From Mobula hypostoma (taxonomy: Eukaryota), in NCBI RefSeq assembly GCF_963921235.1, contig NC_086107.1, positions 100,132,001 through 100,196,000 of the forward strand: a stretch of 64,000 nucleotides of DNA, given 5' to 3'. The position numbers and the translations under genes were made by a program. This document shows positions 30,601 through 36,600 of the stretch, in pieces. The notes beneath the pieces are model-generated. The model saw only the letters and a list, made by a program, of their open reading frames with translations. It was not told the origin of the DNA and made no database searches. How positions within the stretch are numbered: the stretch's first letter is position 1; each line of letters opens with the position of its first letter.

Positions 30601-33600
30601 TTAAGTAGTAAAAAAACCATACTATTAAGTGTATTGATTTGATTCACGGCGGCAACACTTTAATGCAGTCCCTTCTTGCAGTGAGTAGCCAAACTAATTT
30701 CCAATGGATTTGTAGTATGTGTGAAAAAGATTTTTTAAAAATTCTGGTGATGTGGGCAACTCTGGCAAGATCCCACATCAAAGTTGCTGGTGAATGCAGC
30801 AGGCCAAGCAGCATCTGTAGGAAGAGGTGCAGTTGACGTTTCAGGCCGAGAGACTTCCTACAGATGCTGCTTGGCCTGCTGCATTCACCAGCAACTTTGA
30901 TGTGTGTTGCTTGAATTTCCAGCATCTGCAGAATTCCTGTTGTTTGGCAAGATCAACTTATTTTGCCCATTGTGACTCAAAACATGACTTGTCAGTGCTG
31001 TTCTTCAGACAGCATAGGTGCAATGTGCATTCTCTAATCCCTGCTAGTTTGTAAACTTTTTTTGAGAATGTAACACAAGGCCATATATTTTAATGTATAG
31101 AATCATGGAAATCTACAGCACATTACAGGCCCTTCGGCCCTCAATGTTGTGCCGACCATGTAACCTACTCTAGAAACTGCCTAGAATTTCCCTACCACTT
31201 AGCCCTCTATTTTCTTAAGCTCCGTGTACCTATCTGAGAGTCTCTTGAAAGACCCTACGGTATCTGCCTCTACCACCATCGCTGGCAGTGCATCATTCCA
31301 TGCACCCACCACTCTCTGTGTGAAAATCTTACTGCTGACATCCCCCTTGTGCCTACTTCCAAACACCTTAAAACTATGCCCCCTCATATTAATGAATAAA
31401 TCAAATGATCATTAGATGATAGCTCTTTTCCTATCTTTAATGCCTCAAATGTTTAATGGTTTTCCTTTCTGTTTCGCTTCCTAGCCATGCTAAAGGTTGT
31501 TTCTGCAGTACTTCAATTTGGGAACATCGTTTTCAAGAAAGAACGCAATACAGACCAAGCTTCCATGCCTGATAATACAGGTGAATAGATCAGCGATCTA
31601 GTGAAACTTGTGCTAATGCTATAAATAAGTAGATCACTTAACAGACAAACTTGTAGATTTTGAACTCATCTTCACTTGTATGTTCATAGTATTCTGTTTG
31701 CAAGGACTGTATTTCAATTCTGAAAGTGTTTTTCTGGACTGAAGTGTGCACTCTTAAATGGTGTAGTCTCCACTACTTAAAGCACTTGCATTTTAAACTG
31801 TCCAGAAAGCCAAAGCCATTATCTGTGCATATCACTATATTGCTATTTATAATGTTTGCCGTTGCTTGCTTTTTTATTGATGTTGGCTCACTAGTTTCCA
31901 ACTTATCAAAGATCAGTTGTACTTCTAAAACTGCTGTAATTGTTCAGTTTATAGCTAAAGCTGACTTAATTTGGCTTCCTTAATATTGCACATACTGAAC
32001 ACTACCTTGTTATTCCAGACGTTGTTTAGCGAGGAAAAATACAGCATTTAGAAAGGCAACAATTAATCAAAAGCAATCAGCATGGGGAAATTTGCTTCAG
32101 GCAATTTTGAAGTTTTGGCTGAGGTAATGAAGATTCATGATGAGAAATTTCTGGTTTTGACTCCACTTTCACTTTCCATAAGTTTAGCTCATTTAAAGCT
32201 TCCCTTATTCTGACTAATACCAACTTTCATTTATTTGACAATCCTGTGCTTACTGACTGAGATGCTCAGCATCAAAGGGTTGCTAAAGCACAAGAAAACA
32301 GGTCGACCTTCTATAATCCGGCACCATTGGGACCTGAGGAGTGCCGGATTAGTGAAAATGCCAAATTACAGAAGGATCACTTTAAGCAATAGCTAACCGC
32401 CTCATCATACTTTTAAAGTATCAAAGGATTCAAAGGTTCATTTAATGTCAGAGAAATGTATACAATATACATCCTGAAATGCTTTTTCTTCGCAACCATC
32501 TGCGAAAATAGAGGAGTGCCCCAAAGAATGAACGATAAATGTTAGAACCCCTAAGTTCCCCACCACCCCCCAGCTCCCCTCCCTCTTGCGTGTAAGCGGC
32601 AGCAAGCAACAATCCCCCCCTCCCCACCGGCAAGAAATAAAGCGCACCCACTACCAGCACTCAAGTGTGAGCTAAGCGATAGCAAAGATACAGACTTGCG
32701 GTTACACCAAAGACTACATTGTTCACCCGATAGTTGGACATGCTGCAGGCTCTCTCTCTCTCCTAATAAGAGAAAGAGGTGATTCATGTAAACTAGTACA
32801 AGTTAGATAATAATGAAACAGAAATATTAAATGAGTAGCAAGTGAAATTTTAATATACTGTACAGGCACAGATAAAATAAAGGGTACAGGTAAATGTACA
32901 GGAATTAACTTACACAGAACAGTTGAGCACTTCCGCTTCTAAAGTGAGACGTTTAATATACCTTCAGGCAAAGTTACATGTCTGCAAGTGTGGGGTCGTC
33001 AGAAGCGGAAGTCTGAGAAAGGAGGTCTTCTAGACACCACATTTCATGCGACCGCCAGGCAGCCGGGGCTTCGGCGCTGGGCTCTTCTCTCTTCACTCGC
33101 AGTTACTGAGGGATCCTCGTTAGTTTCTTTTCCTCCGCTTAGTAATATGCTTAAATTCAGCGGGTGACCACGTCTGATCTGAGGTCAAAGGCAGAAGAGA
33201 ACGGAGCGCTGGCTGGGTGACGCCGGAGGGCAGTGTGCGACTGCCGGCAGGCGGGCAAGAAGGCGGACCGACCCAGCGTATGATATTAATAAATGCAGGA
33301 AAACAAGCAGGAATCGCCTGTCTGTGCTTACAAGAGTGCACCAACACATGAACAGATCTAGCACAACCAAAACAATATGCAGCAGATTGGTACGGTGGCC
33401 TGGAAAATTTGAAATTACAGTTGCGTGGAAAATTTGAAATCAGTGCGGAAGGGCCGGCTGGTGGCGCAATGACATTGGCGCCGGACCCGGGAGTGGAGGT
33501 TCCCGTGTTTGAAACCAGTCGCGTCCGCTCCCGAGTACACTTTCCATCCGTGCCAGATTGAGTGTCAAGATCACAACTCAACCTCGTAAAATAAAAAGGG

Positions 33601-36600
33601 AAAAATACTGCGAAAATGTCTGTGTGAGGAGTGGCCACAGTCTCTCTCTTGCTCCGCGCCTTGTAAAAATGCCATGAAAAAGACATCATCACGGACTCGC
33701 ACGCACGCAGGCACACGCAAAAAAAGAAATCAGTGCGGATTATCAAAGGAACCGGATTATAGGTGGTCGGATTAGTGAAGGTCGACCTGTATTAGAGTAG
33801 ATAAACGCAGCTTGGAAAAGGAACCTGTGTCTTAAAGGAGGAATGGGGAAGTTGTGGGTAAAAATGTTTTTGGTGGCTTTGCTAACTGAAGTACGTCTAC
33901 CAATGTTAAAGCAGTAAAATTTGGGATGGGCTAGAGGCCAAGATTGCAGAATCGCAGAACTGATGTTTTGAGGCTAAATCAGATGGTAAGTAGGGAAGTA
34001 GCCAATTACTTAAACAGGAGCCTGTATAGATTGGCAAACAATGAGTGTTGGGTGAAATGGCAACTTAAGCTGTGGACAGTAACAATTTAAATTACCTTGT
34101 TTCTGGAGACTTGGAAAATTGTTATCCAAGGAAGTTTTGGCAGTCATATCAGGAAGTGATCTTGTTTGAGATGGAGTTGAGTAGTGTTACAAGGGTATAA
34201 ATGGGTAATCTTGATAATACCATACTTCTGAGATCAGCAACTTGTACTTCTCGCTCTACTTTGATTCCTAGTAAAGTAAAATACCATAGTAAAGTGGTAA
34301 CATACATCAAAGTTGCTGGTGAACGCAGCAGGCCAAGCAGCATCTATAGGAAGAGGCGCAGTTGACGTTTCAGGCCGAGACCCTTCGTCAGTCCTGACGA
34401 AGGGTCTCGGCCTGAAACGTCGACTGCGCCTCTTCCTATAGATGCTGCTTGGCCTGCTGCGTTCACCAGCAACTTTGATGTATGTTGCTTGAATTTCCAG
34501 CATCTGCAGAATTCCTGTTGTTTGATAGTAAAGTGGTGTTTAAATTGGGAATGTTTCCTTCACAGCTGCCCAGAAAGTCTGCCATCTGCTGGGAATCAAC
34601 GTGACTGACTTCAGCAGGGCAATCCTCACACCCCGCATTAAAGTTGGGAGGGATTTTGTCCAGAAAGCTCAGACCAAAGAGCAAGTGAGTATTTTCTTGT
34701 TTTCTGTGGATTTTTTATTTTGAAGTTAGGTCAGCATAATAGTAAAGCGCTTAAAAATACAGGTTGAGTACCCCTTATTTGAAATTCCAAAATCTGAATT
34801 ATTTTTGAGCACTGACAAGACAAATGGAAAGTTCCACGTGGTGCTGGGAACGTTCTCTGCACATCACAGACAATTCTGAAAAGTGTCCTCACATGTAATG
34901 AACAGTAGCCAATGCAATATTGAAACACCGCATAAAGTGAAAAATGAAGATCTTGATTATGTATTGAAAGAATGGATTTCTTGGACTCAATGCCGCTTAA
35001 TGATATGCTGATCGTGAAACAGGTAAAAATCTACCATAAAGAACAGAAAATTGCAGGCTGGTTGCTGAAATTTAAGAAAAGGCATGGCATTACATTTTTA
35101 AAGATTTGTGGTGATGAAGTGTCTGCTGATAACGAAGCTGCAGAGAAATTCATTGAATTTGCCAAGTTTGTCATTGATGAAAATTTAACATGCTGAATGG
35201 CTGTATCAGTGCATATGTTTGATGAACAAGTGTAAAACAAAGACGACTTTCCAGTAGCACTTGCAACTTCAGAATTGGAAATGATGGCAATCCCAATCTA
35301 TCTCATTATATAATCCAAAATCCAAAAAAATTCAGATCATTTCCAGCCCCAAGCATTACAGGTAGGGGTATTCAACTTGTAGTTAATTTCAAAGCCGCTT
35401 AAATAATATTGTTCACTCTTTTCAGATTACACATTCAGGTAGGTTATTCTACCATGAGTTTCATTGTTTGTTGTCTTTCATTTTACATGAATAGAATAAA
35501 TGCAGTTGGACCATTACCTGTATGCTTCTGTAACAGAATAAATATAGCTCTAATCTGGGCTCCTGATTAGCAGAAACATTGCATTAACACAAGTTAAAAC
35601 AAGGTATGCCAAAAATTGATCAGTGTAAGAATAATATAATGTACACTCGCATATCTTTGACAGAATTTTGGGAGGGAGGGAATATCTGACATGAGATAAT
35701 TACTAGTAGAAGCAACATGAGTTTAAGGTGCTTTAGATATGGCCAGTTTGTTTTTAGTAAAGAGCATTTAAAATGAGTGCTACAGTTGTACTTCATAAGT
35801 AATTATGGACCCATCTGAACTATCCTGTGTTTTATTAGAGACTGCTGGCAGACAACCAAAAAGGCATTTTCCTCCCACGTAAATGAACAGACAAGGATTT
35901 CCCAGTTATGTTTTTAATGCATTTTATTTTTTAGAAAATGCTTATCTTGGCTTGTGCAAATTTTATGTTTGAACAGTGCTGAAACAATAGTTATTCTGTG
36001 AACAAAAAAGATGGGGAAGAAATCTGTTTCTGGCTGATTAGTTTTTGGATGACTGAAATTTCATATCACCTTTCTTAGGTCATGAGTTTGCTTGCAGAAT
36101 GGTTGCAACATGGGGGAGGGAGGAAGCATTTAGCTCACTTAATTATGGGGCCAAATAATTCCCCTGCCTCACTGTATATACTCTGTCATAAGTGACCAAA
36201 TAGAGAATTGTATTCATTAAAATTCTCCACAGATCTCAAAGACTGTTAAAGTAGGTCCATCATGATGAATTATGTTGAAGTGTTCTTGGTGGCTTCCACT
36301 TTTTGAAGCATATTCCCTCAATTGGTTTCAATATATCAACCAATACTGAGGAAGGCAGGAGAATTGAAACTGATTTAACATGGAAAAGAAACCAGCTGAA
36401 ATCAGAAATCTGGTGTTGATGGAAATAGATATTGATGTGATAGCTTGGGTTTTGTTCAAAGAGTAGACATATGCTTATAATCAGTGATCAAATAATGTTG
36501 CTACCTATGCTGGGTATCGACACCTCACTTTTAAGAATAATCCTGATTCAGCAGTCTTGGAATTTCACATTCCACTCCTGCCTGGGGTGTTTTGGTTAAA

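Follow-up and report, generated by a model that had tools for sequence, protein, structure and literature searches.

A non-autonomous pogo-type transposon family of Mobula hypostoma with ITS2 and 28S rDNA in place of its transposase region

How does the 5′ end of 28S rRNA come to lie between the inverted ends of a DNA transposon, in the intron of a myosin gene, and does this arrangement belong to one locus or to a family? The locus is part of a 64,000-nucleotide stretch of Mobula hypostoma DNA (NC_086107.1, positions 100,132,001 to 100,196,000), referred to here as the window. Coordinates are those of the window unless stated otherwise.

A TA-flanked element in a myosin intron

The initial annotation had proposed a DNA transposon with 22-bp terminal inverted repeats (TIRs) at 32299..33789. 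We found that this segment is a TA-flanked TIR element of the Tc1/mariner superfamily, pogo/Tigger type, and that it is non-autonomous (Table 1). Its inverted ends are real, with measured arms of 26 nt each (32295-32320 and 33768-33793) that are 88% complementary; the true termini are CAGGTCGACCTTC at 32299 and the complement of CAGGTCGACCTTC ending at 33789. All 26 full copies have the target-site TA on the right and 22 of them also on the left, where the other four read AA (the window copy), TT, CA and CA. The hAT and PIF/Harbinger superfamilies were considered from the CAG... terminus and rejected because the duplications are TA, rather than the 8 bp of hAT or the 3-bp TWA of PIF/Harbinger. 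The window copy has no transposase coding capacity: it lacks region 338-2169 of the autonomous element (see below), and Pfam returned nothing for its longest open frame, 223 aa at 33123-33791 on the minus strand.

In the related organism D, a 1848-nt contig joins window position 32297 directly to 33793, with at least 297 nt on each side. This organism has an empty orthologous site, which demonstrates past mobility and, together with the shared termini and the TA duplications in full copies, bears out the TIR transposon that had been proposed. The site is likely filled in organisms B and C, whose contigs enter the element by 22-29 nt, less than the 31 letters required for bridging; the left flank has no coverage in organism C.

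The surrounding gene, on the plus strand, encodes a class II myosin heavy chain, and its tail exon scores best with Myosin-9 (89.9 bits, versus 74.7 for Myosin-10). Since the 28S piece lies on the minus strand, it is antisense to the predicted intron transcript, as had been suggested for an intron of MYH9. No data set listed as containing this sequence is recorded as RNA. In run X5, whose RNA label is a guess, zero-difference contigs cross both element borders at a depth of about 4.

Table 1. Features of the window copy, with coordinates in the window
Feature	Position	Strand	Evidence or remark
Left target-site duplication	32297..32298	.	Decayed, AA in place of TA
Terminal region with TIR (CAGGTCGACCTTC...)	32299..32423	-	BLAST to autonomous L065a 1-125, 92.8%
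Retroposon 3′ end, 5′-truncated, ~350 bp	32424..32783	-	Independent copies L072-L075
Transposon-derived internal segment	32784..33004	-	Autonomous L052a 108-334, 91.6% over 227 nt
Transposon/28S junction, short duplicated CAGAAG-type filler	33005..33010	-	Junction alignments
First 176 nt of 28S rRNA, apparently copied from host rDNA	33011..33186	-	Rfam and BLAST to L031
ITS2 3′ end	33187..33278	-	33187-33259 by host alignment, 33260-33278 by other copies
Segment upstream of transposase ORF	33280..33449	-	L052a 2174-2340, 89.8% over 167 nt
Nested SINE-like retroposon, A-rich tail	33450..33725	+	Absent from the other 25 full copies
Terminal region with right TIR	33726..33789	-	Matches L052a 2330-2394
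Right target-site duplication	33790..33791	.	TA

In transposase orientation, the left terminal region is the 3′ end of the element and the right one its 5′ end. Two of the internal parts are themselves retroposons. The 5′-truncated fragment belongs to a separate abundant family (sequencing depth at 32426-32496 is very high in four runs) and was inherited from the ancestor of the element family; neither the autonomous element nor one copy, L080, contains it, and the independent retroposon copies share 32436-32783 and continue past 32783. The SINE breaks the segment upstream of the ORF after 33449 and is flanked by a 14-nt duplication, GAAATCAGTGCGGA, at 33436-33449 and 33726-33739 (direct repeat D4). 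It is private to the window copy (positions 1152-1427 of this copy, used as the query, are unmatched in the other full copies), and 39 other scored places in the genome are 85-90% identical to it over nearly its full length.

Donor and recipient of the rDNA

Window 33011-33259 (minus strand) aligns with the host rDNA unit L031 at 221/252 identities (88%, E = 1e-84, BLAST), and in Rfam the minus strand of 33086-33164 fits positions 24-103 of the LSU_rRNA_eukarya model (81.9 bits, E = 1.2e-18). The 28S start (GACCTCAG) is located at 33186, and in the window copy the 28S part shows 92.7% identity with host 28S. The piece and its strand are therefore as initially annotated, while its extent is 33011-33186 (176 nt) rather than 33024-33186. 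In an Rfam search of 30000-36000 at E values up to 1, this LSU match was the only one inside the element. Outside the element, hairpin repeats in the same interval match miRNA families below the Rfam cut-offs.

The GC-rich stretch at 33187-33275 had been thought to be ITS2, and it is, because 33187-33259 aligns with the last ~73 nt of host ITS2 (L031 5334-6305, between 5.8S and 28S). Direct host alignment stops at 33259, and 33260-33278 is homologous to the ITS2 block in other copies, where the block extends to L031 5520. These copies match query 796-980 and have ~66 bp extra between query 980 and 982; as this ~66 bp of the family block, after 33278, was lost from the window copy, its ITS2 is shorter than the original family capture. 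Aligned to the host 45S unit, a check that had been proposed, the block spans the ITS2/28S boundary. ITS2 is contiguous with 28S, so the source was rDNA or unprocessed pre-rRNA and not mature rRNA, in agreement with the initial reasoning.

As autonomous partner we identified a pogo/Tigger-type element of ~2.37 kb whose transposase matches Pfam DDE_1. Both matching termini were found in three of 30 fetched DDE_1 loci (L052, L054 and L065), which share query positions 1-125, 486-706, 982-1148 and 1428-1491; in a fourth, L055, the match is confined to part of the left side of the element. An ORF of 450 aa in L054 shares its strand with the 28S piece. The composition of a long copy (L006) can be read against both parents: its positions 1-118 and 455-684 correspond to 1-125 and 109-337 of the autonomous element, 688-1018 to rDNA (L031 5156-5520) and 1017-1240 to autonomous 2170-2394. 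In the non-autonomous family, ~365 bp of rDNA (~187 nt of ITS2 and ~178 nt of 28S) sits in place of the transposase region, and no rDNA match was found in the autonomous copies. By these alignments, the rDNA has taken the place of the transposase region, and the autonomous element concerned can be identified.

The parental locus is host 45S rDNA, L031 5156-5520, in a unit that has no match to the transposon arms. The rest of this 20.7-kb unit (L070 and L071) gave no further match to the family beyond four 22-nt matches (E = 0.009), which fall inside the private SINE of the window copy and were taken as chance. The family majority state, a comparison that excludes distortion by the flanks of short-form copies, is identical to host 28S at 173/178 positions and to host ITS2 at 146/154 aligned bases (94.8%), plus 33 host-only nt. 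These identities place the capture in the host lineage or in that of a close relative. The rDNA piece had been put forward as a taxonomic barcode that allows a horizontal-transfer test. The barcode is readable, and it points to the host lineage itself, giving no indication that a distant donor was involved.

Family size and forms

A genome-wide search with a 27-nt TIR word (up to 3 mismatches) returned 975 matches, versus 0 for the reversed control, so chance is excluded. A 27-mer across the rDNA junction gave 230 matches and one across the autonomous-type junction 91 (both controls 0), and the rDNA block alone gave 294 first-look candidates. The size of the family is uncertain and is put at several hundred copies at least. 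The 10254 first-look candidates obtained with the whole element are an inflated figure and were rejected as a copy number, because that query held the SINE (3947 first-look candidates) and the retroposon piece (4803).

The rDNA block is present in 26 of 26 full copies, a biased sample in that it was retrieved with a query containing rDNA. It is also present in 30 (17 and 13, from separate searches) of 32 other sites sampled by TIR alone, a sample limited to copies whose left TIR is perfectly preserved; the remaining two (L089 and L090), which lack rDNA, are deletion derivatives of other kinds. The genome-wide check suggested in the initial annotation thus shows the block to be family-wide and not a one-off.

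Copies occur in a long form of ~1.2 kb, which includes the type of the window copy, and a short form of ~0.89 kb. The copy that lacks the retroposon piece, L080, retains autonomous sequence to about 422 and on its structure is read as a probable older form, although it could instead have arisen later, by recombination of an autonomous with a non-autonomous copy, and not be ancestral. Non-CpG divergence is 3.9-4.2% in the rDNA block versus 3.6-4.1% in other internal parts, a measure of post-insertion decay that is blind to effects on transposition. Decay of the block appears neutral, and the most likely role of the rDNA piece is that of a passive passenger.

Origin of the chimera and comparison with known systems

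The junctions of the block differ from each other. Where ITS2 meets the transposon the two share GC, a 2-nt overlap expected by chance fairly often, and where 28S meets it there is a duplicated CAGAAG-type motif of 5-6 nt, that is, inserted letters and no overlap. Neither an A-tail nor a target duplication was found at the block borders in the junction alignments. Read from junction anatomy only, this would fit filler DNA from template-switching repair.

We consider it highly probable that this non-autonomous pogo-type family was born when rDNA replaced the transposase, and that it was then amplified. The founder would have lost ~1.75 kb, including the transposase ORF, from a ~2.37-kb DDE_1 element and gained ~365 bp of host 45S rDNA, the last ~187 nt of ITS2 and the first ~178 nt of 28S, in the orientation of the lost ORF. 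The most likely trigger would be a double-strand gap that excision or breakage had left in a transposon copy; during its repair, DNA synthesis would have switched template to rDNA and then back at short homologies, a process that goes by the names of filler DNA, abortive gap repair or Pack-TIR formation. Since both ends were retained, the chimera could have been mobilised in trans by the transposase of autonomous relatives and amplified to at least several hundred copies. We infer this repair mechanism, DNA and not RNA as its template, and the following order of events: a retroposon 3′ fragment would have inserted near one end, an ~85-bp deletion would then have produced the ~1.2-kb long form, that of the window copy, and a 372-bp deletion the ~0.89-kb short form; the window copy alone would have lost ~66 bp of ITS2 and received the SINE.

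If the template was RNA, unprocessed pre-rRNA spanning ITS2/28S would have been reverse-transcribed, or would have templated the repair, and so have entered a broken copy. Such a template would suit the continuity of ITS2 with 28S as well as rDNA does, and the nested SINE and retroposon fragments attest to active retroposon machinery in this genome. We nevertheless regard it as unlikely: the borders of the block are free of A-tail and target duplication, the ORF is replaced with the tight junctions typical of template switching, and the block ends at arbitrary internal rDNA positions rather than at RNA processing sites, the 28S start being merely spanned. Formation of the element in another species, followed by horizontal transfer with the rDNA as a donor barcode, is very unlikely. 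Tc1/mariner elements are known for their propensity to horizontal transfer, and the majority state does differ from present host ITS2 at 8 of 154 positions, plus the 33 host-only nt, but the fast-evolving ITS2 is still 94.8% identical to that of the host and 28S matches at 173/178. The family is moreover found at high depth in at least four related organisms, and autonomous relatives and other deletion derivatives reside in the same genome. A donor within the same clade is possible.

The only DNA transposon with rDNA sequence listed in a 2024 review of rDNA inside transposable elements (PMC10946416, Table 2) is Pokey, a piggyBac element of Daphnia that inserts into 28S and contains IGS-derived repeats. 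By that precedent, an rDNA-resident transposon might have taken flanking rDNA by aberrant excision. We hold this to be highly improbable, as the rDNA here is internal, flanked by about 710 and 220-530 bp of transposon sequence and adjoining neither terminus, the copies are dispersed at TA sites on many contigs outside rDNA, and no TIR match was found in the examined rDNA unit. The null hypothesis, by which two unrelated inverted repeats happen to enclose an isolated rDNA orphon or pseudogene, has a practically negligible probability and is refuted by the TA duplications, the empty site in organism D, and the same block and junctions in 26/26 full copies and 30/32 TIR-sampled sites. The filler might also be non-neutral, ITS2 and the 28S 5′ end giving the derivative an edge over its siblings: donor copies or transposase might be drawn towards nucleolus-associated chromatin, or small-RNA silencing might be blunted, rRNA-like sequence being poorly targeted. 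RNAs made from hundreds of intronic antisense copies could also pair with the ITS2/28S processing region of pre-rRNA. Such an advantage is distinctly unlikely; its sole hint is the 30 rDNA-bearing sites among the 32 with a perfect TIR, versus two other derivatives, which founder luck explains equally well.

The proposed birth of the family by template-switching repair has parallels elsewhere. Ac/Ds and P elements give rise to filler-DNA deletion derivatives through 'abortive gap repair', and these resemble the present family in internal deletion, retention of both ends and foreign filler, which in those derivatives is joined at short homologies; they belong to other superfamilies and hosts, whereas here the filler is rDNA and is fixed in a large family. 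Among Pack-TIRs of animals, TcMariner elements account for 115 of 370 cases (Tan et al. 2021, Nat Commun, PMC8277862). As in that survey, non-TE host sequence lies within a TIR element, and the parental copy is identifiable; the 2-nt overlap and the short duplicated motif are compatible with the microhomology or small insertions described there at breakpoints, for which a template-switch origin was proposed. Animal Pack-TIRs are mostly single-copy and multicopy ones are reported to be rare, with four cases only, in frogs and alligators (PMC8277862), while the chimera described here has been amplified to at least hundreds of copies. Its cargo also sets it apart from the Pack-TIRs of that survey, whose main text contains neither 'rRNA' nor 'ribosomal': it is rDNA, and it takes the place of the entire transposase region present in a known autonomous partner. 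The family is a multicopy Pack-TIR with an rDNA-derived module, and such capture of host sequence by a transposon is uncommon and mechanistically ordinary.

Like Pokey/mPok, this is a TIR family with non-autonomous members and internal 45S-derived sequence (PMC10946416). Pokey, however, is a piggyBac element, site-specific in 28S, with IGS subrepeats upstream of an intact transposase, while the present family is pogo-type, targets TA and is dispersed, with ITS2 and the 28S 5′ end instead of a transposase. Its insertion is not rDNA-specific in the manner of Pokey or R1/R2-like elements, since its TA sites, here in a myosin intron, lie outside rDNA. Dispersal of 28S-derived sequence through a genome by a mobile element is shared with SINE28 (Longo et al. 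2015), the sole 28S case in Table 2 of the same review (PMC10946416). SINE28 is a retroposon, in contrast to the present cut-and-paste element, which includes ITS2 and has TIRs, a fixed TA duplication and an rDNA block without a tail. In the literature outside Repbase and subscription journals, we found no pogo or Tc1/mariner element with 28S/ITS2 cargo. With Pokey as the one DNA transposon and SINE28 as the one 28S case in Table 2 of the review, a pogo-type ITS2-28S family lengthens a short list.

The family is a clean and datable case of the birth of a non-autonomous DNA transposon: a single genome retains the autonomous parent and the host donor sequence, together with both breakpoints, a likely intermediate and later subfamilies. 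With hundreds of 28S/ITS2 look-alikes dispersed through the genome, errors can arise in this clade when rDNA is annotated, when rRNA reads are filtered, and in ITS2 barcoding or FISH with 28S probes. At the same time, the frozen ITS2 copy preserves an image of the ancestral spacer, and the presence or absence of individual insertions can serve as a phylogenetic marker.

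rDNA content of the element and its source

The inverted repeats that bound the element have arms of 26 nt that are 88% complementary; the left terminus, CAGGTCGACCTTC, starts at 32299 and its complement closes the element at 33789. As the initial annotation proposed, the 5' end of 28S rRNA lies between them, with borders slightly wider than first noted. Both an Rfam match (gathering score 50) and a BLAST comparison with the host rDNA unit detect it (see the table). The 28S start (GACCTCAG, window 33186) falls inside the BLAST alignment, which therefore spans about 73 nt of the ITS2 3' end and nt 1-176 of 28S. 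The adjacent GC-rich stretch, suspected earlier of being ITS2, is ITS2 by this alignment. Directly after 33278, some 66 bp of the ITS2 part are missing from the window copy.

The host 45S rDNA was located on contig C50 of the assembly (3.48 Gb, 200 contigs), and the positions of the 28S and 5.8S genes in L031, a host rDNA unit, define the host ITS2 between them. The array opens this contig (G000:C50:1-145159; L031-L033, L070, and L071) in units that repeat about every 20.7 kb, and weak matches at even spacing in L071 hint at spacer subrepeats of about 372 bp.

The majority sequence of the aligned family copies is identical to the host 28S at 173 of 178 positions and to the host ITS2 at 146 of the 154 positions that align; a further 33 positions occur only in the host. 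Given that ITS2 is fast-evolving, so close a match would mean that the rDNA was captured in the host lineage or in a close relative. The rDNA thus works as the donor barcode it was proposed to be, and nothing in it points to a distant donor. The rest of the 20.7-kb unit (L070 and L071) has no further match to the family's own sequence; four rDNA-unit matches at E = 0.009, 22 nt each, are all within the SINE-like insert private to the window copy.

Coordinates of features in the window, the host rDNA unit (L031) and the long-form family copy (L006)
Feature	Position	Strand	Remarks
Myosin exon before the element	window 29346-29576	+	head positions 175-209
Myosin exon after the element	window 38736-38978	+	positions 374-436
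Retroposon 3' end, ~350 bp	window 32424-32783		abundant; 4803 first-look candidates in genome search
BLAST alignment to host rDNA unit	window 33259 to 33011		221/252 identities, E = 1e-84
ITS2 part of the alignment	window 33259-33187
Eukaryotic LSU rRNA 5' end (Rfam)	window 33086-33164	-	81.9 bits, E = 1.2e-18, model positions 24-103
SINE-like insert, 276 bp	window 33450-33725		A-rich end; private to window copy
Target duplication of insert, 14 nt	window 33436-33449 and 33726-33739
Hairpin repeats	window 30783-30895 and 34355-34430	both	near-perfect
HTH_Tnp_Tc5 (Pfam)	window 34957-35193	+	E = 0.005, below cut-off
ALKBH8_N open frame, 194 aa	window 46350-46931	-	E = 1.5e-10
Host 28S	L031 1501-5333	-	3833 nt
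Host ITS2	L031 5334-6305		972 nt
Host 5.8S	L031 6306-6459	-
L006 part 1			autonomous 1-125
L006 part 2			extra ~336 bp
L006 part 3			autonomous 109-337
L006 part 4			rDNA L031 5156-5520
L006 part 5			autonomous 2170-2394

An abundant family sharing the rDNA block

The proposal that other TIR copies contain the same rDNA block was upheld genome-wide. A search with the element as query gave 130 scored pieces from 40 scored candidates, and 26 copies with both ends, counting the window copy, were cut from the fetched loci. Their termini are identical in kind in all 26, TA is found at the right end of all 26 and at the left end of 22 (AA in the window copy), and every one carries the rDNA block. 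The most complete copies align to L031 5156-5520, comprising 178 nt of 28S and 187 nt of ITS2. Many copies belong to a short form, about 0.89 kb long, that lacks query positions 424-795, and their 28S piece therefore ends 83 nt early.

Because the query held rDNA, this sample is biased, and a second, independent sample was therefore drawn with a 27-nt left-TIR word, which has 975 genome matches at up to three mismatches (zero for the reversed control), 33 of them perfect, the window site included. Apart from the window, 32 sites match perfectly, and the rDNA block is present at 30 of these: at 17 the block had been shown before or the rDNA/transposon junction word occurs close by, and 13 (L076-L088) proved to have it on fetching. 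The other two, which derive from the same pogo-type element by internal deletion, carry no rDNA: L089 (G000:C2:91119593-91120892; breakpoints at autonomous 392/1647) and, independently, L090 (G000:C22:15707352-15708951; breakpoints at 316/1782). A 27-mer across the rDNA junction has 230 genome matches and the corresponding autonomous-type junction 91 (zero for both controls). The TIR-word and junction-word counts thus put the number of copies at several hundred or more. With only the rDNA block as query, at least 294 first-look candidates result, a lower bound; the 10254 candidates of the whole-element search were rejected as a copy number, being inflated by nested repeats.

Two such repeats lie in the window copy. 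The retroposon piece is present in all long and short copies and absent from the autonomous elements and from L080, another rDNA-bearing copy. Independent copies (L072-L075) match it from about 32436, extend past 32783, and start with TTCAAAGG-like short repeats, which represent the tail on the opposite strand. In the four public runs, depth at 32426-32496 exceeds that of neighbouring sequence by orders of magnitude, which suggests a tail common to a LINE/SINE pair. The SINE-like insert gives 3947 first-look candidates as query, with 39 other scored places at 85-90% over nearly its full length, and an Rfam scan found no tRNA match in it at E up to 1.

Autonomous parent and capture of the rDNA

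DDE_1 is the core of pogo-type transposases. A genome profile search with this Pfam domain (PF03184) gave 150 matches, 30 of which were fetched as loci. Three of these (L052, L054, and L065) have both family termini, about 2.36-2.39 kb apart, and a fourth (L055) matches part of the element's left side. L054 encodes a 450-aa open frame. These autonomous elements and the window copy have four segments in common (query 1-125, 486-706, 982-1148, and 1428-1491), and comparison with the host rDNA unit detected no rDNA in the autonomous copies. The segment order in L006 thus puts the rDNA in the exact place of the transposase region. The L054 frame is on the strand equivalent to window minus; therefore, the ITS2-28S piece and the lost gene point the same way. 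The reading as a TIR DNA transposon with rDNA cargo is both supported and sharpened by the TIRs, the TA flanks, the host-rDNA match, and the parent element.

L080 (G000:C9:131179691-131180990, reverse strand) has about 85 bp more autonomous sequence beside its 28S piece. At the ITS2-side junction, host ...TCACGC/TCGCG and transposon ...AAGAGC/AAATGA are combined into ...TCACGC/AAATGA, with an overlap of 2 nt. On the 28S side, L080 keeps autonomous sequence to about 422 (...GGGTGAGCAGAAG), followed by a duplicated CAGAA and then 28S GTCGGAGAAAGGAGG, and it is also without the extra 336 bp. The long form, window copy included, additionally lacks autonomous 338-422, lost between two similar short words. 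On our reading, L080 represents an older state of the rDNA-bearing family; alternatively, it could be a recombinant. The rDNA block is flanked by neither a tail nor a duplication, and its tight junctions show very short overlaps or duplicated letters. All of these are traces that remain when a gapped transposon is repaired by template switching. We infer from the junctions that the rDNA filler may have originated in this way, a gapped transposon having been repaired with template switching to rDNA.

A 2024 review lists among rDNA-derived TE sequences many SINEs and TRIMs with 5S promoters, SINE28 for 28S and, as the single DNA transposon in its list, Pokey/mPok, with IGS repeats (PMC10946416). 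A survey of animal Pack-TIR elements describes 370 cases in 100 genomes, including 115 TcMariner; multicopy cases are rare, and rRNA goes unmentioned in its main text (PMC8277862). A search of the open full-text literature turned up no description of ITS2-28S cargo in a pogo or Tc1/mariner element. The rDNA-bearing pogo-like family is not a new kind of system: the element derives from a pogo-like transposon, is of the Pack-TIR type with host rDNA as its filler, and has been highly amplified.

Genomic context, decay and age

By Pfam, the + strand carries exons for the myosin head and tail in collinear order between 3500 and 62091, on both sides of the element. One tail exon scores best as Myosin-9 (89.9 bits vs 74.7 for Myosin-10 and about 72 for Myosin-11). 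The 28S piece, on the minus strand, is therefore antisense to the intron's predicted transcript, in agreement with the orientation suggested earlier for a putative MYH9 intron. The hairpin repeats in the window match the plant/animal miRNA families MIR2118_2 and mir-3926 on both strands, well under gathering scores; rather than miRNA genes, these are probably MITE-like palindromes. The weak HTH_Tnp_Tc5 match, some 1.2 kb further downstream than the element, may have been left by another pogo-type transposon, and the ALKBH8_N open frame opposite the myosin strand may be part of a repeat-encoded protein.

Divergence was measured on 24 copies below 1.3 kb, with the longer L010 and L011 excluded. 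The element is CpG-rich (76 CpGs per 1279 majority positions). Divergence from the majority has a median of 21% at CpG sites (17.8% in the window copy) and 3.75% at other sites (3.2% in the window copy). This CpG decay indicates probable germline cytosine methylation of the family elements. The rDNA block decays about as the rest of the element does (non-CpG divergence of 3.9-4.2% vs 3.6-4.1% in other internal parts). In the family alignment (26 copies; loci L001-L030), the typical CpG variants change CACGC to CATGC or CACAC.

Parts of the window are found in public runs from several coded related organisms, whose contigs were aligned at 92% likeness or more, with 31 letters required for bridging. 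A 1848-nt contig from organism D connects window 32297 straight to 33793, with flank differences of about 6%, and is an empty orthologous site; the join is at most 2 nt off the prediction for a TA-duplicating insertion. Contigs from organism B enter the element from both flanks by 29 and 22 nt, and one from organism C enters its right end by 29 nt, all below the 31-letter rule; judged from these overlaps, the site is probably filled in both. Depth over the element is high in all four runs, so the family is common to these organisms. At non-CpG sites each copy has diverged by about 3%, a value of the same order as half the A-D flank divergence, which fits insertion around or after that split.

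For the birth of a non-autonomous element, the family offers a natural example of textbook quality, and it has practical relevance in the host clade for rDNA annotation, barcoding, and marker work.
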